IMG/VR virus record: IMGVR_UViG_2529292905_000029
Source: a virus
Lineage: Duplodnaviria; Heunggongvirae; Uroviricota; Caudoviricetes
Length of the DNA stretch: 22,134 nt
Direction: 5' to 3' (one strand)
Shown: piece by piece, positions 7,320 through 20,998 of the stretch
How positions within the stretch are numbered: the stretch's first letter is position 1
How the letters are laid out: each line of letters starts with the position of its first letter
Notes under the pieces: model-generated
What the model was told of the DNA's origin: nothing
The model's database searches: none
Seen by the model: the letters and a program-made list of their open reading frames with translations, nothing else
Made by a program: the position numbers and the translations under genes

Positions 7320-7450
7320 TAACGAATATATGCGCACACTGCATGAAAATGCATTTTCTTTTAAGGGGGCGATATATCGAGTCGAGTCATGGTTGATGCG
7401 ACATTAGTGTGCTGGTGCAACTGCATTCAAACAGACCCATGAAGCGGGCG

Positions 7451-7469
7451 GGCGAGGCGGGGAAAGCAC
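7451..7469. other. cos site: 19-nt cohesive-end sequence GGCGAGGCGGGGAAAGCAC
   Basis: Exact 19-mer that I recall as the P2 cohesive end, found at the expected map position between the accessory slot and the 3' end of Q. A G/T-rich tract follows at about 7540-7610. Confidence 0.7.
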
Positions 7470-7610
7470 TGCGCGCTGGCGGTGGTGCTGATTTTATTTT
7501 TTCAGCGTCTCAGCGCGTCGTGACGGCGCTTAGTCTGCCCGTTGAGGCGTTGGTGTGTCTGCGGGGTGTTTTGTGCGGTGGTGAGCGTGTGAGGGGGTGA
7601 TGACGGGGTG

Positions 7611-7633
7611 TAAAAAAGCCGCCCGCAGGCGGC
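7611..7633 (-). terminator. Rho-independent terminator downstream of Q
   Basis: On the minus strand: GCCGCC-TGCG-GGCGGC stem-loop followed by TTTTTTA, starting about 5 nt after the Q stop codon. Confidence 0.6.
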
Positions 7634-7638
7634 GATGT

Positions 7639-8673
7639 TCAGTCGTTGTCAGTGTCCAGTGAGTAGTTTTTAAAGCGGATGACCTCCTGACCGAGCCAGC
7701 CGTTTATCTCGCGGATCCTGTCCTGTAACGGGATAAGCTCATTGCGGACAAAGACCTTTGCCACTTTCTCAATATCTCCCAGTGACCCGACGTTCTCCGG
7801 CTTGCCGCCCATCAACTGAAAGGGGATGCGGTGTGCGTCCAGCAGGTCAGCGGCGCTGGCTTTTTTGATATTAAAAAAATCGTCCTTCGTTGCCACTTCA
7901 CTGAGCGGGATAATTTTAATGCCGTCAGCTTTCCCCTGCGGGGCATAGAGAAACAGGTTTTTAAAGTTGTTGCGACCTTTCGACTTAACCATGTTTTCGC
8001 GGAGCATTTCGATATCGTTGCGATCCTGCACGGCATCGGTGACGTACATGATGTATCCGGCATGTGCGCCATTTTCGTAATACTTGCGGCGGAACAACGT
8101 GGCCGACTCATTCAGCCAGGCAGAGTTAAGGGCGCTGAGATATTCCGGCAGGCCGTACAGCTCCTGATTAATATCCGGCTCCAGCAGGTGAAACACGGAG
8201 CCGGGCGCGAAAGGTGTCGGCTCGTTGAAGGACGGCACCCACCAGTAAACATCCTCCTCCACGCCACGGCGGGTATATTTTGCCGGTGAGGTTTCCAGTC
8301 TGATGATCTTACCGGTGGTGCTGTAACGCTTTTCCAGAAACGCATTACCGAACACCAGAAAATCCAGCACAAAGCGGCTGAAATCCTGTTGTGAAAGCCA
8401 CGGATGCGGGATAAATGTCGAGGCCAGAATATTACGTTTGACGTAAATCGGTGAGCTGTGATGCACGGCAGCACGCAGACTTTTTGCCAGACCGGTAAAG
8501 CTGACCGGCGGCTCATACCATCTGCCGTTACTGATGCATTCGACGTAATCCAGAATGTCACGGCGGTCGAGTACCGGCACCGGCTCGCCAAAGGTGAATG
8601 CCTCCATTTTCGGGGCGCTGGCGGTCATTGTTTTTGCCGCAGGTTGCGGTGTTTTCCCTTTTTTCTTGCTCAT
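7639..8673 (-). CDS. Q: Portal protein (P2 gpQ), 344 aa
   Basis: Minus-strand ORF of 344 aa, the same length as P2 Q. Adjacent to and overlapping the terminase large-subunit gene; immediately inside cos, as in P2. Confidence 0.9.
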   Translation of the reverse strand: MSKKKGKTPQPAAKTMTASAPKMEAFTFGEPVPVLDRRDILDYVECISNGRWYEPPVSFTGLAKSLRAAVHHSSPIYVKRNILASTFIPHPWLSQQDFSRFVLDFLVFGNAFLEKRYSTTGKIIRLETSPAKYTRRGVEEDVYWWVPSFNEPTPFAPGSVFHLLEPDINQELYGLPEYLSALNSAWLNESATLFRRKYYENGAHAGYIMYVTDAVQDRNDIEMLRENMVKSKGRNNFKNLFLYAPQGKADGIKIIPLSEVATKDDFFNIKKASAADLLDAHRIPFQLMGGKPENVGSLGDIEKVAKVFVRNELIPLQDRIREINGWLGQEVIRFKNYSLDTDND

Positions 8674-10445
8674 CAGTAAAACTCCAGAATGGTGGATGTC
8701 AGCGGGGTGCTGATACCGGCGGTGAGTGGCTCATTTAACAGGGCGTGCATGGTCGCCCAGGCGAGGTCGGCGTGGCTGGCTTCCTCGCTGCGGCTGGCCT
8801 CATAGGTGGCGCTGCGTCCGCTGCTGGTCATGGTCTTGCGGATAGCCATAAACGAGCTGGTGATGTCGGTGGCGCTGACGTCATATTCCAGACAGCCACG
8901 ACGGATAACGTCTTTTGCCTTGAGCACCATTGCGGTTTTCATTTCCGGTGTGTAGCGGATATCGCGCGCGGCGGGATAGAACGAGCGCACGAGCTGGAAC
9001 ACGCCGACACCGAGGCCGGTGGCATCAATACCGATGTATTCGACGTTGTATTTTTCGGTGAGTTTGCGGATGGATTCAGCCTGAGTGGCAAAGTCCATGC
9101 CTTTCCACTGGTGACGCTCAAGTATCCTGAATTTGCCACCGGCCACCACCGGCGGTGCCAGCACCACGCATCCGGCGCTGTCGCCACGGTGTGACGGGTC
9201 GTAACCAATCCATACCGGGCGGGAGCCGAACGGATTGGCGGCAAAGGGTGCATAGTCTTCCCATTCTTCCAGCGTGTCGATCATGCAGCGTTGCAGCTCC
9301 TCGAACGGGAACACCGATGCCTTGTCGTCAACAAATTCACACATGAACAGGTTTTTAAAATCGTCGGCGCTGTTTTCGCGTTTGAGCTGCTCAATGTCGA
9401 ACAGCGTGCAGCCACCTTTCAGGGCGTCCTCAATGGTGACAATCTGCCGCCACTGGCCGTCTGCACAGAGAAGCCCATCGGCAAGGGCGTTATGACTGAC
9501 GTCGATTTCCACGCGTTCGGCGGCGCTGGCGCGTCCCCGGTTGAACAGTTCACCCGACCAGAACGGGTAGGCGTCGTGCGCCAGCGTGGACGGGGTGGAG
9601 AAATAGGTCGAGCGCAGGTGACTCTGTGAGGCCATACCTGATGCCACCTTACGCAGTACCTGAAAATTCGGTATCCAGAAAATCTCGTCGACGTACAGGT
9701 CGCCGTTATGGCTCTGCGCGGTGTTGGAGTTGGTGCCGAGAAAAATCAGTTTTGCGCCGTTATTGCCCAGGACAATCGGGTCACCGGTCAGGTCAACGTC
9801 AACCAGCCGGGCAAAGGCGATGATGTATTCGCGGAACACATACGCCTGCGTTTTACTGGCCGACAGAAAAATCTGGTTATGACCGGTTTTCAGGGCGCGC
9901 AGCAGCGCCTCGCGGGAAAAATAAAACGTCGCGCCAATCTGGCGGGATTTCAGGATATCGCGGATGCGGTGCTCAAGCCCGGCGCGATACCAGTGCAACT
10001 GATAGTCGAAAGACTGCTCAAAGAAAATCTGCTCCAGCTTTTCGATAGCCTCGTCACTGAAAAAATTCTTTTTCGGTTTGCGACGCCCGCCTTTGTTGCG
10101 GTTAGCGACGTTCGGATTAAGGTCTGCCTCGTTGCCGGTCTGGCTGTAACGGTTGACCCGTGCCAGCCGTTCAATCTGGCGTCCGAGCAGGTCAATTTCC
10201 TTGAAGTCACCGCCGGTTTTCTGCGGTTTGATGATGAGCTGGGTCAGCCGCGCTTCCAGACTCATTTCGACACGGCTGATGGGGGCAACGCTGTCCCAGC
10301 CGTCGCGCTGTTTCCAGCTCTGCACCGTCGGGCGTTTCATCTGCAACATGGCGGCAATCTGCGGCACGGAAAACCCCTGCCAGTACAGCAGCGCCGCCTG
10401 ACGACGCGGGTCGTGTAAAAGAGTGGTGTCTGTGGTGATGGTCAT
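8673..10445 (-). CDS. P: Terminase large (ATPase) subunit (P2 gpP), 590 aa
   Basis: Minus-strand ORF. Start taken at MTITTD (ATG 10445) with GAGG upstream, giving 590 aa as in P2 P. The ORF track's longer 600-aa version begins 30 nt upstream. Divergent from the O-N-M-L operon, as in P2. Confidence 0.9.
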   Translation of the reverse strand: MTITTDTTLLHDPRRQAALLYWQGFSVPQIAAMLQMKRPTVQSWKQRDGWDSVAPISRVEMSLEARLTQLIIKPQKTGGDFKEIDLLGRQIERLARVNRYSQTGNEADLNPNVANRNKGGRRKPKKNFFSDEAIEKLEQIFFEQSFDYQLHWYRAGLEHRIRDILKSRQIGATFYFSREALLRALKTGHNQIFLSASKTQAYVFREYIIAFARLVDVDLTGDPIVLGNNGAKLIFLGTNSNTAQSHNGDLYVDEIFWIPNFQVLRKVASGMASQSHLRSTYFSTPSTLAHDAYPFWSGELFNRGRASAAERVEIDVSHNALADGLLCADGQWRQIVTIEDALKGGCTLFDIEQLKRENSADDFKNLFMCEFVDDKASVFPFEELQRCMIDTLEEWEDYAPFAANPFGSRPVWIGYDPSHRGDSAGCVVLAPPVVAGGKFRILERHQWKGMDFATQAESIRKLTEKYNVEYIGIDATGLGVGVFQLVRSFYPAARDIRYTPEMKTAMVLKAKDVIRRGCLEYDVSATDITSSFMAIRKTMTSSGRSATYEASRSEEASHADLAWATMHALLNEPLTAGISTPLTSTILEFY

Positions 10446-16885: not shown

Positions 16886-17521
16886 ATGAACACTCTCGCA
16901 AATATTCAGGAACTCGCGCGCGCACTGCGCAACATGATTCGCACCGGCCTTGTCGTCGAAACCGACCTTAACGCCGGTCGCTGCCGTGTGCAGACCGGCG
17001 GCATGTGCACTGACTGGCTTCAGTGGCTGACCCATCGCGCCGGACGTTCGCGCACATGGTGGGCACCTTCCGTGGGGGAACAGGTGCTGATTCTGGCCGT
17101 GGGGGGTGAACTCGACACGGCGTTCGTTCTGCCGGGGATTTATTCCGGCGATAACCCCTCGCCGTCTGTGTCGGCGGATGCCCTGTACATCCGTTTCCCT
17201 GACGGGGCGGTGATTGAGTATGAACCCGAAACCAGTGCGCTCACGGCAAGCGGAATTAAAACGGCCAGCGTGACGGCTTCTGATTCTGTTACTGCCACGG
17301 TGCCGGTGGTCATGGTGAAAGCGTCAACCCGCATCACTCTGGACACGCCGGAGGTGGTCTGCACCAACAGGCTGATTACCGGCACGCTGGAAGTGCAGAA
17401 GGGCGGGACGATGCGCGGCAACATTGAACACACCGGCGGTGAACTCTCATCAAACGGTAAGGTACTGCATACCCATAAACACCCCGGCGACAGCGGCGGC
17501 ACAACCGGGAGTCCTTTATGA
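16886..17521 (+). CDS. V: Baseplate spike / hub protein (P2 gpV), 211 aa
   Basis: 211 aa, as in P2 V. First gene of the V-W-J-I-H baseplate/fibre operon. Confidence 0.9.
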   Translation: MNTLANIQELARALRNMIRTGLVVETDLNAGRCRVQTGGMCTDWLQWLTHRAGRSRTWWAPSVGEQVLILAVGGELDTAFVLPGIYSGDNPSPSVSADALYIRFPDGAVIEYEPETSALTASGIKTASVTASDSVTATVPVVMVKASTRITLDTPEVVCTNRLITGTLEVQKGGTMRGNIEHTGGELSSNGKVLHTHKHPGDSGGTTGSPL

Positions 17522-17793
17522 CAGCGCGTTATCTCGGAATGAATCGCAGTGATGGCCTGACTGTCACTGACCTTGAGCATATCAGCCAGAGTATCGGCGA
17601 TATCCTGCGCACACCGGTCGGCTCACGGGTGATGCGTCGTGATTACGGCTCGTTGCTGGCGTCAATGATTGACCAGCCGCAGACCCCGGCGCTTGAGTTG
17701 CAGATTAAGGTCGCCTGTTACATGGCGGTGCTGAAATGGGAACCCCGCGTCACCCTGTCATCCGTCACCACGGCGCGCAGTTTTGACGGGCGA
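17518..17793 (+). pseudogene. W: Baseplate wedge protein W (P2 gpW), 5' fragment of 92 codons, interrupted by IS
   Basis: ATG at 17518 overlaps the V stop. The reading frame runs into the IS end sequence after codon 92 (...SFDGR). The ORF-track 124-aa product is read-through into the IS. Confidence 0.8.
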
Positions 17794-17797
17794 ATAA
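17794..17797. repeat. Target-site duplication (left copy), ATA(A)
   Basis: ATAA directly abuts the IS left end and is repeated at 19410-19413 at the right end. Confidence 0.7.
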
Positions 17798-19409
17798 GGG
17801 GGTGCGGACGATTTCTTGGACGGTTTATACGGACATCAATCCGACCGCATGACGATACTCGATGGGACTACGCCCGCCAAGCGACACTTTGATGCGGCGC
17901 TCGTTGTACCAGTGGATATAGGCATCGATTCGCGTCATGAGGTCTTTCAGCGTCACGTGCTGCCAATTCCTCGGGTAGATTAGTTCGGTCTTCAATCGTC
18001 CGAAAAAGCCCTCGCATGCAGCATTGTCTGGCGAGCAGCCCTTTTTGGACATCGACCGCGTTAATTGGGCATTTTCAGTGCGGCGGATCCACGCAGGCCA
18101 GCGATAATGCGAGCCCCTGTCCGAATGGATAACCGGATGCTCACCGGGTCGCAGTGTCCGTACCGCGTGATCCAGCATGGTATTGACCAGGTTCGCATCC
18201 GGGCTGGTGCCGATATTCCAGGCCACCACCAGCCCATCGAAGCAATCGACGATCGGCGAGACGTAGACCTTCCCTGCCGGAATGTGTATTTCCGTCAGAT
18301 CGGTCAACCATTTCGTATTCGGCGCCGACGCGTGAAAGTCGCGATTCAGCAGATTCGGGACCGCTGGTGTCGGGTCGCCAGCATACGCCGAGAAGCGCCG
18401 GCGGCGCGGTGTTCTCACGACCAGACGCTCTTGCGCCATCAAGCGACGCACGACCTTCTCGGACACACGCATGCCACCAAGGCGCAAGGCACTATCAATG
18501 CGTCGATAGCCATAGCAGCGGTAGTTGTCCTCGAAGATAGTCCGAATGACCTCACGCACCTGCGTGTACTTGTCGGGCCGCGTCTGCCGCAGGCGTTGAT
18601 AGAAGTATGTGCTGCGCGCCAGCTTCAGGCCGCACAACAGATTGGCTAATGGAAACGTGACTCTGAGGGCATCAACCACCTTCGTTTTTTCTCGGCTTGT
18701 CAGTTCGAGGGGGTTGATGCCCATGTCTTTTTTTATCAATTCACTCGCCTTCTCCAGAATTGCATTCTCCATGCGAAGCCGCTGGTTCTGGCTCTCCAGT
18801 TCGGCCAGTTCCCTGAGTAGTGCCTCATGCCGCTGCTCGAGCGAGGTGTCACCTTTCTTCTTTGTCATGGGTTTTAGGGGCACTTTGCCAAGTAATCGAT
18901 GCTGCCAGTTATACAACGTTGGTCGCGATACACCGACAGTGTCGGCCACATCCTTTGCCGAACCTACGCGCAGGTTCAGTGCAATGACGGCTTGCTGCTT
19001 CTCGAGGCGAGAGCGGGCGACTGTGGGAGCGCTGCTGCCGACGACCGTCCTAGCGAATTCAGGGCGTAAATCACGGATCCAGGCACGCAAGGCCTCGCGG
19101 CTTGGGTAGCCCAGGCTTCGGATTGTGTGACTCAGGCAGTAGCCTTGTTCGATATAGTGATCTACTGCCCGTTGCTTTTGCTCATCGGTGTACTGCCGTT
19201 TTATCCGTTGATAGCCTCGGCGAAGATCCTGATTCCGTTCGAATTCTGCCAACCAGGCCTTCAGCGAGTTCTTGGTGGGGTATCCCAGCTGCCGTAGTGT
19301 GGCGCTCATCCGGCGCCCAAGCTTCAGGTACAACCTCACGGCTCGAAGGCGATCTTCATACGAATACATGAACTACTCCTAAAGTAGTCCAAGATTTTGT
19401 CCGCACCCC
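17798..19409 (-). mobile_element. Insertion sequence (~1.61 kb), IS3-family-like, inserted in gene W
   Basis: Imperfect terminal inverted repeats: left GGGGGTGCGGACGATTTCTTGGAC, right (reverse complement) GGGGTGCGGACAAAATCTTGGAC. Flanked by an ATA(A) direct repeat. Carries one long transposase ORF. Removing it restores a 115-codon W reading frame. Confidence 0.85.
17825..19369 (-). CDS. Transposase, IS3-family-like DDE (rve) type, single fused 514-aa ORF
   Basis: N-terminal HTH region resembling IS150-type InsA (MYSYEDRLRAVRLYL...), leucine-zipper-like segment (LLRELAELESQNQRLRMENAILEKA), and C-terminal rve-type catalytic motifs (HSDRGSHY; SPDNAACEGFFGRLKTE). AGGAG lies 7 nt upstream of the ATG. 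Confidence 0.85.
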   Translation of the reverse strand: MYSYEDRLRAVRLYLKLGRRMSATLRQLGYPTKNSLKAWLAEFERNQDLRRGYQRIKRQYTDEQKQRAVDHYIEQGYCLSHTIRSLGYPSREALRAWIRDLRPEFARTVVGSSAPTVARSRLEKQQAVIALNLRVGSAKDVADTVGVSRPTLYNWQHRLLGKVPLKPMTKKKGDTSLEQRHEALLRELAELESQNQRLRMENAILEKASELIKKDMGINPLELTSREKTKVVDALRVTFPLANLLCGLKLARSTYFYQRLRQTRPDKYTQVREVIRTIFEDNYRCYGYRRIDSALRLGGMRVSEKVVRRLMAQERLVVRTPRRRRFSAYAGDPTPAVPNLLNRDFHASAPNTKWLTDLTEIHIPAGKVYVSPIVDCFDGLVVAWNIGTSPDANLVNTMLDHAVRTLRPGEHPVIHSDRGSHYRWPAWIRRTENAQLTRSMSKKGCSPDNAACEGFFGRLKTELIYPRNWQHVTLKDLMTRIDAYIHWYNERRIKVSLGGRSPIEYRHAVGLMSV

Positions 19410-19413
19410 ATAA
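19410..19413. repeat. Target-site duplication (right copy), ATA(A)
   Basis: Direct repeat of 17794-17797, immediately after the IS right end. Confidence 0.7.
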
Positions 19414-19481
19414 CGGTCACGTTAACCGGTCAGCACAACGACACCGGCCAGCCACTTTCGTTAACCATCCCTGTGAGTTGA
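19410..19481 (+). pseudogene. W: Baseplate wedge protein W, 3' fragment (23 codons), downstream of IS
   Basis: In-frame continuation (I)TVTLTGQHNDTGQPLSLTIPVS ending at TGA 19479-19481, five bases before the J start. 92 + 23 = 115 codons, the length of P2 W. Confidence 0.75.
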
Positions 19482-19485
19482 AACC

Positions 19486-20394
19486 ATGCCGATTATCGAC
19501 CTGAACCAGCTACCCGCACCGGATGTGGTCGAGGAGCTGGACTTTGAAACCATTCTTGCCGAACGCAAGGCGACACTGATTTCCCTTTACCCGGAAGACC
19601 AGCAGGAGGCGGTCGCCCGTACCCTGATGCTGGAATCTGAGCCTCTCGTCAAACTGCTGGAGGAAAATGCTTATCGTGAGCTTATCTGGCGTCAGCGTGT
19701 GAATGAGGCCGCACGGGCGGTAATGCTGGCCTGTGCCGCCGGTAATGACCTTGATGTGATTGGTGCCAATTACAACACCACGCGCCTGATTATCACCCCG
19801 GCAGATGATTCGACTATCCCGCCGACACCGGCAGTGATGGAATCTGACACCGATTATCGTCTGCGTATTCAGCAGGCGTTTGAAGGTTTAAGCGTCGCCG
19901 GGTCAGTGGGAGCCTATCAGTATCATGGTCGCAGTGCCGACGGGCGTGTCGCGGATATCTCTGTCACCAGTCCGTCTCCGGCCTGTGTCACTATCTCTGT
20001 GCTGTCTCGCGAAAATAACGGTATCGCATCCGAAGACCTGCTGGCGGTGGTGCGCAACGCCCTTAATGGTGAGGACGTCAGGCCGGTGGCCGACCGCGTG
20101 ACCGTGCAGTCTGCCGCCATCGTTGAATACCAGATAAACGCCACGCTTTACCTTTACCCTGGTCCTGAAAGCGAACCCATCCGCGCTGCTGCCGTGAAAA
20201 AACTGGAAGCGTACATCACGGCACAGCACCGGCTGGGGCGCGACATCCGTCTGTCTGCCATTTATGCCGCTTTGCATGTGGAAGGCGTGCAGCGTGTCGA
20301 GCTGGCCGCACCACTGGCCGACATTGTGCTCAACAGTACGCAGGCGTCTTTCTGCACCGAATACAGCGTCGTGACCGGAGGCTCGGATGAGTGA
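19486..20394 (+). CDS. J: Baseplate assembly protein J (P2 gpJ), 302 aa
   Basis: 302 aa, as in P2 J. Position after W. Confidence 0.9.
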   Translation: MPIIDLNQLPAPDVVEELDFETILAERKATLISLYPEDQQEAVARTLMLESEPLVKLLEENAYRELIWRQRVNEAARAVMLACAAGNDLDVIGANYNTTRLIITPADDSTIPPTPAVMESDTDYRLRIQQAFEGLSVAGSVGAYQYHGRSADGRVADISVTSPSPACVTISVLSRENNGIASEDLLAVVRNALNGEDVRPVADRVTVQSAAIVEYQINATLYLYPGPESEPIRAAAVKKLEAYITAQHRLGRDIRLSAIYAALHVEGVQRVELAAPLADIVLNSTQASFCTEYSVVTGGSDE

Positions 20395-20998
20395 TTCGCG
20401 CCTGCTGCCGACCGGCTCATCACCGCTTGAAGTTGCCGCCGCAAAAGCCTGTGCGGAAATTGAAAAAACGCCGGTCAGTATTCGTGAGCTGTGGAACCCG
20501 GACACCTGCCCGGCAAATCTGCTGCCGTGGCTGGCGTGGTCATTTTCGGTTGACCGCTGGGATGATAAGTGGCCGGAAGCGACAAAACGCGCTGTTATCC
20601 GCGATGCGTATTTCATTCACTGCCATAAGGGCACTATAGGCGCAATCCGGCGTGTGGTGGAGCCGCTCGGCTATCTGATTGAGGTGAGGGAGTGGTGGCA
20701 ACTCAATGAGGAGCCGGGGACGTTCCGTATCGTTGTTGGCGTGCTTGAGCAGGGTATTACCGAGGAAATGTATCAGGAGCTGGAGCGCCTCGTTGCTGAT
20801 GCAAAACCGGCAAGCCGCCATCTGACGGGACTGGCTATCAGTTTAAGCACAACCGGCAACATTTTTGCCGGTGCGGGATGCTATCACGGCGACGCCCTGA
20901 CGGTTTATCCCTACACCCCGGAGGCCATTATTGTCGGAGGGGATTATTTCCCGGCCTCGGCCATTCATTTAATTGATAACCTGAGAGTAAACGCATGA
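20387..20998 (+). CDS. I: Baseplate / tail protein I (P2 gpI), 203 aa
   Basis: ATG 20387 preceded by GGAGG and overlapping the J 3' end. Stop overlaps the H start. Position between J and H. The ORF is longer than the 176 aa I recall for P2 I. Confidence 0.8.
   Translation: MSDSRLLPTGSSPLEVAAAKACAEIEKTPVSIRELWNPDTCPANLLPWLAWSFSVDRWDDKWPEATKRAVIRDAYFIHCHKGTIGAIRRVVEPLGYLIEVREWWQLNEEPGTFRIVVGVLEQGITEEMYQELERLVADAKPASRHLTGLAISLSTTGNIFAGAGCYHGDALTVYPYTPEAIIVGGDYFPASAIHLIDNLRVNA

Follow-up and report, generated by a model that had tools for sequence, protein, structure and literature searches.

Identity and insertion site of the element

We analysed IMG/VR virus record IMGVR_UViG_2529292905_000029, a stretch of 22,134 nucleotides (nt) referred to here as the window, and focus on an insertion sequence (IS) on its minus strand whose transposase is encoded by a single open reading frame (ORF). 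Genes V, W, J and I occupy 16886-20998 of the window, upstream of which come portal, terminase, capsid and replication-sized ORFs, the arrangement of a P2-like prophage. The 1612-nt stretch that an initial annotation of this DNA had delimited as the element recurs at 100% identity in 62 E. coli records and in 227 plasmids from many genera. One of these matches is in plasmid R100 (NC_002134.1, positions 7399-9010), where the element is flanked by istA of IS1326 and by tniB in the Tn21 context sul1 - orf5 - IS1326 - tniB - tniA - urf2 - mer region. Papers on NR1/Tn21 and In2 describe IS1353 as an insertion in IS1326, adjacent to tniB. Because our element is identical to the R100 copy at precisely this site, we identify it by sequence as IS1353 of the IS3 family, taking the name from the papers on In2/Tn21. 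Its RefSeq product is WP_000287615.1, a protein of 514 amino acids (aa) annotated as an IS3 family transposase. The initial annotation had allowed that a match to a known IS of the same organisation would make the element unremarkable, and as a new element it is: being IS1353 itself, it is a long-known mobile element of resistance plasmids.

The copy in the window differs from that of In2/Tn21 (R100/NR1) solely in its location. When the element and one copy of a TAA duplication are removed, the flanks join into an uninterrupted V-W-J sequence that 1505 E. coli genomes contain unbroken, annotated there as baseplate V, GPW/gp25 family and baseplate assembly protein. Baseplate gene W loses its last ~25 codons to the insertion, and for this reason the prophage is probably defective in tail assembly. 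None of the 5426 complete E. coli genomes searched has the junction between the IS and gene W. The E. coli chromosomal copies that we inspected (6 places in 5 genomes) all lie in the In2 context and yielded no further independent insertion site; both plasmid copies inspected (pUMNK88 and R100) also lie in that context. Given the absence of the junction from these genomes and the In2 context of the inspected chromosomal copies, the copy in the window records an independent transposition of IS1353. This shows that an IS1353 whose transposase gene is fused can move: this copy lies outside its usual In2 home and has damaged a prophage baseplate gene. As to the copy-out/paste-in route through a circular intermediate that characterises the IS3 family, the novel site demonstrates only that the element moved. 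The features of the locus are listed in Table 1.

Table 1. Coordinates in the window of IS1353, its transposase gene, the cassette within that gene and the interrupted host gene.
Feature	Position	Strand	Basis
IS1353, complete 1613-bp copy	17798..19410	-	100% identity over 1612 nt; ends from comparison of window and R100 flanks
Transposase, single 514-aa ORF (OrfAB equivalent)	17825..19369	-	ORF, Pfam, NCBIfam
N-terminal DNA-binding region, three tandem helix-turn-helix domains, aa 1-164	18878..19369	-	Pfam
Leucine zipper, aa 184-212	18734..18820	-	L184, L191, L198, L205 invariant at 7-residue spacing in 22 diverse relatives
Slippery heptamer A_AAA_AAA	18728..18734	-	codons ATA AAA AAA (I212 K213 K214), in phase with the transposase frame
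Spacer GACAT, 5 nt, heptamer to hairpin	18723..18727	-	alignment A2, columns 14-18
56-nt hairpin, predicted frameshift stimulator	18667..18722	-	covariation, fold energy
Hairpin 5' arm GGGCATCAACCCCC	18709-18722	-	
Hairpin 3' arm GGTGGTTGATGCCC	18667-18680	-	
TGA in +1 frame, 8 codons past heptamer	18700..18702	-	would end a 222-aa product from a transcript or copy lacking one A
TGA in -1 frame, 18 codons past heptamer, inside hairpin 3' arm	18672..18674	-	conserved T
Catalytic D357	18299-18301	-	invariant in alignment of 22 relatives
Catalytic D417	18119-18121	-	invariant in alignment of 22 relatives
Catalytic E453	18011-18013	-	invariant in alignment of 22 relatives
K460		-	invariant in alignment of 22 relatives
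Transposase-proximal terminal inverted repeat (IRL) TGGGGTGCGGACAAAATCTTGGACT	19386..19410	-	sequence; motif GGGG(G/A)TGCGG..CTTGGACT at both ends in 73 relatives
Distal terminal inverted repeat (IRR), + strand reading GGGGGTGCGGACGATTTCTTGGACG	17798..17822	-	sequence; end motif in relatives
Target-site duplication, left copy TAA	17795..17797	.	restored empty site
Target-site duplication, right copy TAA	19411..19413	.	restored empty site
5' part of P2-like baseplate gene W, interrupted	17518..17797	+	restored sequence matches GPW/gp25 family
Displaced 3' end of gene W	19411..19481	+	sequence and restored-site match

A fused transposase with an IS3-family core

The transposase gene is one uninterrupted ORF of 514 codons that starts with ATG, as the initial annotation had read it. 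That annotation had also described an N-terminal helix-turn-helix (HTH), a leucine zipper and an rve-type DDE domain with IS3-like motifs, and the profile searches and alignments bear this out. Pfam places HTH_28 at aa 7-45, HTH_Tnp_1 at 57-123, HTH_23 at 124-159 and HTH_21 at 271-324, followed by rve at aa 348-444 (63.9 bits) together with rve_2. Both motifs named earlier, HSDRGSHY (within VIHSDRGSHY) and DNAACEGFF (within SPDNAACEGFFG), are in the translation, and the zipper leucines and the DDE-K residues are invariant in the relatives aligned. The spacing of the catalytic residues, D-60-D-36-E plus K, is that of the IS3-family core. The NCBIfam model transpos_IS3 matches aa 124-506 with 408 bits (cut-off 160). 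The IS481 family, whose members are relatives of IS3 and likewise encode their DDE transposase, rve domain included, in a single ORF, was considered and rejected, given that transpos_IS481 scores 73.2 bits, below its cut-off of 224, and that the zipper and frameshift window of the element are typical of IS3.

Canonical IS3 elements carry orfB in the -1 frame relative to orfA, such that standard decoding yields OrfA and frameshifting yields the transposase. IS1353 shares with IS911, IS3, IS2 and IS150 the order HTH - leucine zipper - DDE and a 3-base-pair (bp) duplication; its OrfB part is 39.6% identical to that of IS150 over aa 224-507. It also shares with canonical IS3 elements a frameshift window, that is an A-rich heptamer with downstream structure, at the junction of the zipper and catalytic parts. 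Hence in its catalytic core, HTH and zipper order, profile score and short duplication the element conforms to the IS3 family, and it departs from the family in having neither overlapping orfA and orfB nor TG...CA inverted-repeat ends. A further difference from canonical IS3 is that there are three HTH domains here instead of one or two, with two extra ones at the N-terminus. Because the NCBIfam IS3 model begins at aa 124, we read aa 1-123, the first two HTH domains, as a predicted extension of the DNA-binding region relative to a typical IS3 OrfA. The three HTH repeats (aa 1-164) carry recurring LGYP(T/S)...L..W motifs.

The fused ORF is the normal state of a clade

To place IS1353 among its relatives we used the 120 best protein clusters (100-54% identity) and the best 80 genome loci, taken from one-genome-per-species contigs and reaching down to 53% identity. 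All 120 clusters are single ORFs of 494-517 aa, except for two of 446-447 aa, which are also single ORFs. All 80 loci match query residues 1-506 or more without a break, and they span the beta-, gamma- and alpha-proteobacteria and a few other phyla. These counts, with the transpos_IS3 score, uphold the suggestion of the initial annotation that the element belongs to an IS3 subgroup with a fused transposase. A named member of the clade is ISKpn38, an IS3-like element of Klebsiella plasmids with a 511-aa single ORF that is ~51% identical to IS1353 over its full length. It has the same in-phase run of seven A's (A7) and the same hairpin, formed by GGGCATCA...TTGATGCCC, yet it is a different element. 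Judged from these sequences, the single-ORF transposase is the normal state of the whole clade (IS1353, ISKpn38 and relatives), and both sequencing error and private mutation are excluded as the cause of the fusion.

We also looked among the relatives for a sister group with a canonical split of orfA and orfB, and found none. Three candidates were rejected. Two-piece matches in Klebsiella are 5'-truncated, deleted remnants of ISKpn38; a match in Enterococcus faecium is a decayed copy that likewise has A7 in phase through the junction; and a 221-aa 'OrfA' protein (P0137) is encoded by a decayed copy that has other lesions too. A decayed relative on an E. faecium plasmid (NZ_LR135352.1, ~860-2330) has a GGGGGTGCGGAC terminus, an in-phase CTA AAA AAA and a matching hairpin. 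Since this relative sits in a Firmicute, the arrangement reaches beyond the Proteobacteria.

A conserved heptamer at the junction of zipper and catalytic domain

The initial annotation implied that the uninterrupted frame had done away with frameshifting, and it suggested a search for slippery heptamers. This search finds A_AAA_AAA in phase with the transposase frame and followed by a conserved hairpin, at the junction where canonical IS3 elements shift frame, and the implied loss of frameshifting is therefore probably wrong. In the X_XXY_YYZ phase, 71 of 74 related genome loci have A7 and the other three have A_AAA_AAG; among 123 distinct cassettes from genomes and metagenomes the figures are 117 and 6. 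Codon usage at this site departs from that of the same genes elsewhere. The two Lys codons of the heptamer are AAA 137 times and AAG 5 times, while in the rest of these genes AAG prevails (1438, against 560 AAA). Codon 212, whose third base begins the heptamer, ends in A in 75/75 cases (ATA, TTA, CTA or GTA), codons that account for only 3-7% of the I/L/V codons in the remainder of these genes. A scan for synonymous conservation, which scores codon identity among pairs with the same residue in 73 ORFs, returns a single large peak at codons 213-235, where identity is 1.4-1.7x expectation; a minor rise near codons 164-169 falls in a gappy, variable part of the alignment. The heptamer is thus under selection at the nucleotide level.

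We used the length of the run to judge whether the fusion is an artefact. In that case a canonical orfA/orfB pair would be hidden by an error of sequencing, as the initial annotation had envisaged, or of assembly, or by a single base recently inserted in this copy. Homopolymers are error-prone, and the databases do contain rare A6 and A8 variants and 'OrfA-only' proteins of 220-231 aa. However, a scan of metagenomes with a pattern that permits 6-8 bases at the run returned ~100 clade sequences, of which 89 have A7 in phase and 3 have A6G in phase (~92% of this length-neutral sample); two runs are one base shorter (with three more that are degenerate), one is one base longer and two are broken. 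The same A7 recurs in hundreds of independent records, across the clade and in many genera, and the one A6 example that we examined has decayed, with another frameshift and a stop codon in it. We regard an artefact as refuted. On these counts, A7 is the functional state of the run.

The 'OrfA-only' proteins themselves fall into two sets, those of 220-221 aa with a +1-frame tail and those of 229-231 aa with a -1-frame tail. They correspond to clade variants with A6 (read in +1) and A8 (read in -1). For instance, P0163 and P0228 (230 aa) end in …KKRPGRRPATPDEPGEDLAG, and P0133, P0137, P0139 and P0146 (220-221 aa) end in …KKKWASTRSS.

A covarying hairpin downstream of the heptamer

Downstream of the heptamer, after a 5-nt spacer that the clade conserves along with the other parts of the cassette, lies a 56-nt hairpin. 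In 41 sequences with less than 90% mutual identity, the proposed partners can pair in 91% of cells, as against 30-49% when the partners are slid. Several pairs covary in these 41 sequences: pair 23-70 is AU in 22 and GC in 16, pair 28-65 is CG in 31, UG in 6 and UA in 3, and pair 31-62 is GC in 32, CG in 3 and GU in 3. In the full set of 123 cassettes pair 23-70 is AU in 57, GC in 55 and GU in 10, and the hairpin spans exactly 56 nt in every one of them (123/123). The energy of the IS1353 fold is -27.4 kcal/mol (z = -4.7 relative to shuffles), and no other 60-nt window of the entire ORF folds as stably as that of the hairpin in 35 of 41 relatives. The hairpin coincides with the synonymous-conservation peak. 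These data establish selection on the hairpin at the nucleotide level; an Rfam search with the hairpin returned no family match.

On the opposite (+) strand, the same order of elements (hairpin, 5 nt, TTTTTTT) resembles an intrinsic terminator that would block antisense transcription entering the element, and such a function would also require conservation of both the run and the hairpin. We consider it very improbable: the T-run starts 5 nt after the stem, the loop is large, and our promoter and terminator scan flagged neither this site nor anything else of relevance. It would also leave unexplained the constraint on the -1-frame TGA that is described below.

Stops in the alternative frames

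Ribosomes that slipped by -1 at the heptamer would meet a TGA 18 codons downstream in 73/73 loci. The T of this TGA is the third base of codon 232 in the transposase frame and is T in 73/73 loci (GTT, ATT or GCT) despite variation between V, I and A at the residue. It is T in 122 of the 123 cassettes and C in none. Part of this conservation is structural, given that the T belongs to the stem. Even so, in 84 cassettes C would pair better with the opposite G, and GTC is the commoner Val codon; because C is nevertheless never found, the pattern suggests that something besides pairing holds the T in place, which termination of ribosomes at this codon would account for. The -1 stop, like the heptamer and the hairpin, is under selection at the nucleotide level. 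In most loci the +1 frame also closes, after 8 codons, and in this respect the clade carries exactly one A more than the canonical IS3 layout, which has A_AAA_AAG and an orfA stop 8 codons on.

The rapid closure of both frames, with stops that are largely conserved, is what would be expected if RNA polymerase rather than the ribosome slipped in A7: mRNAs with an A added would end after 18 codons and mRNAs with an A lost after 8. A precedent is dnaX of Thermus thermophilus, which has nearby stops in both frames (PMC5009743), and seven A's are reported to suffice in IS1447, a member of the IS3 family (PMC6211511). Most reported sites of transcriptional slippage have at least 9 A's, however (PMC1088944), and the six A_AAA_AAG cassettes shorten the homopolymer yet keep a good ribosomal motif. 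Slippage by the polymerase also leaves unexplained the conserved, covarying hairpin 5 nt downstream, a position typical of ribosomal stimulators. We consider transcriptional slippage unlikely.

The distance of a single A from the canonical layout also fits an explanation with no second protein at all, in which the cassette is either a slowly decaying relic of orfA/orfB with one A added, or a translational pause that lets the nascent N-terminal part bind the ends of its own element and so favours action in cis. Pausing at frameshift sites is linked to the cis-preference of IS transposases in work cited in PMC3711429. A relic, however, would not hold three synonymous heptamer positions, a hairpin and a -1 stop across lineages that are 53-58% identical in protein, and a pause by itself accounts for the hairpin but leaves unexplained both the A7 run and why C never replaces the T of the stop. 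We judge this pair of explanations quite unlikely.

A proposed dnaX-like arrangement in an IS3-family transposase gene

Based on these data, we propose that the fused gene has a dnaX-like arrangement in which standard decoding yields the transposase and -1 frameshifting yields an OrfA-like protein, by analogy a modulator. We put the probability of this proposal at roughly two-thirds (0.68). Ordinary translation of the 514-codon ORF would produce the transposase with its three HTH domains, zipper and DDE domain. The cassette of A_AAA_AAA, 5-nt spacer and 56-nt hairpin occupies the place that the orfA/orfB frameshift window has in canonical IS3 elements. A ribosome that slips by -1 at the heptamer would translate 18 further codons and stop at the conserved TGA in the 3' arm of the hairpin, and the product would be a protein of 232 aa, consisting of residues 1-214 followed by RHGHQPPRTDKPRKNEGG (unique tail peptide …KKRHGHQPPRTDKPRKNEGG), with the DNA-binding and zipper domains and without the catalytic domain. 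The OrfA proteins of IS911, IS3 and IS2 modulate transposition. By analogy, the short protein may bind the element ends or heterodimerise with the transposase and in this way tune transposition. Because the orfA and orfB frames are fused, the roles of standard decoding and frameshifting would be reversed relative to canonical IS3. We infer from the cassette that frameshifting occurs, and its efficiency and the role of the short protein are inferred in the same way.

The comparison with E. coli dnaX, which encodes tau and gamma, rests on a single ORF for the long product, an in-phase A_AAA_AAR, a stem-loop and a nearby -1 stop (PMC5009743, PMC4066793). Our cassette has the hallmarks of a site of this type, namely a synonymously conserved in-phase heptamer, a covarying structure downstream, at a distance (5 nt) within the 5-9 nt usual for such sites, and a conserved -1 stop. 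There are also differences. The proteins are unrelated; the C-terminally truncated product has a distinct role in dnaX, whereas here the short product is predicted; the stop is almost immediate in dnaX and follows an 18-codon tail here; and dnaX has an upstream Shine-Dalgarno-like stimulator, for which IS1353 offers at most a weak candidate. The motif itself is competent for -1 shifts by experiment: in E. coli, frameshifting at A_AAA_AAA was 0.4% with the heptamer alone and 24.8% with the IS3 pseudoknot (PMC4066793 Table S3).

Several observations weigh against a dnaX-like arrangement. With the IS911 stimulators, A_AAA_AAA shifted at 0.8% in E. coli as compared to 4.3% for A_AAA_AAG (PMC4066793). 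No conserved Shine-Dalgarno-like element is seen upstream of the heptamer; there is only a weak AAGAAGG ~15 nt upstream, in a region without excess synonymous conservation. A few clade members have a broken run (L030, L034 and L035). The hairpin and its pause could be kept for co-translational action in cis instead of for a second product. The sufficiency of seven A's for transcriptional slippage in IS1447 and the structural share in the conservation of the stop T, both described above, count on the same side, and the 232-aa product is here itself a prediction from sequence.

Searches based on disrupted ORFs overlook genes like E. coli dnaX, in which frameshifting shortens the product (PMC4066793), and the supplement to the E. 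coli survey in the same paper (Sharma et al. 2014) contains no IS cluster of this type. Full-text searches (IS1353 with IS3 family, single-ORF IS3, ISBmu11, ISKpn38, ISPpy1) returned nothing on gene organisation. Within the searchable papers, a scope that left out the 1996 description of IS1353, a chapter on IS3 frameshifting, the ISPpy1 paper and ISfinder, we found no description of reversed recoding; it may already be on record. If the dnaX-like arrangement is correct, the gene would yield mainly transposase and a smaller share of the inhibitor, and how such elements restrain their activity becomes a question. IS1353 and its relatives would then offer a natural mobile-element counterpart to dnaX for research on recoding, and the way in which annotation pipelines handle 'IS3 family transposase' genes without a frameshift would be affected.

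Element ends and target sites

We set the ends of IS1353 by comparing the flanks of two independent insertions, one in the window and one in R100. This comparison fits only an element of 1613 bp (17798-19410) with a 3-bp duplication, such that the start given by the initial annotation is retained and its end, 19409, moves by one base. The duplication is TAA on the + strand in the window and AGT in R100, and relatives have ACT and TAG. A 4-bp duplication, ATAA, was rejected given that the R100 flanks are compatible with 3 bp only. Read in the orientation of the transposase, the element is 5'-TGGGGTGCGGAC...GTCCGCACCCCC-3', and the termini quoted in the initial annotation, GGGGGTGCGGAC...GTCCGCACCCC, are present. 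That annotation had stated that the ends do not begin with the TG...CA typical of IS3. This is right for the clade, in which relatives carry GGGGG(T/A)GCGG...CTTGGACT at both ends and the termini are GG...CC (GGGGG...CCCCC), and it is right for the distal end of IS1353, which has CC rather than CA. It is incorrect for the transposase-proximal end, which begins with TG because the element is 1613 bp by the flank comparison; the termini of IS1353 are thus TG...CC.

Side observations on the flanks concern the choice of target. In R100 (locus L002, 5613-5641) IS1353 sits exactly at the inner edge of the ~30-bp terminal repeat of IS1326, an element of the IS21 family. In about half of 73 related loci (L003-L082) one or both element ends abut a similar motif, TGTTGAnnnnCnnnnGAAAAnTGACCCAnn, of the form TGTTGA...TGACCCAnn, and an IS21-family istA or istB lies within 1.5 kb in 11 loci. 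The target in the window (19411-19445) has TGACCG 4-5 nt from the joint. Taken together, these sequences suggest a clade-wide preference for the terminal repeats of IS21-type elements. The broader proposition, that a large and widespread IS3 clade, comprising IS1353, ISKpn38 and hundreds of relatives in the Proteobacteria and beyond, both has inverted recoding logic and prefers the inner edge of IS21-type terminal repeats, is in our view evenly balanced between right and wrong. Finally, six loci (L033, L079, L063, L019, L041 and L035) have the IS21-like 30-bp motif on both sides, inverted and directly against the element ends, with no visible duplication; these could be insertions into an IS21-derived miniature element, or the motif could be an extended inverted repeat.

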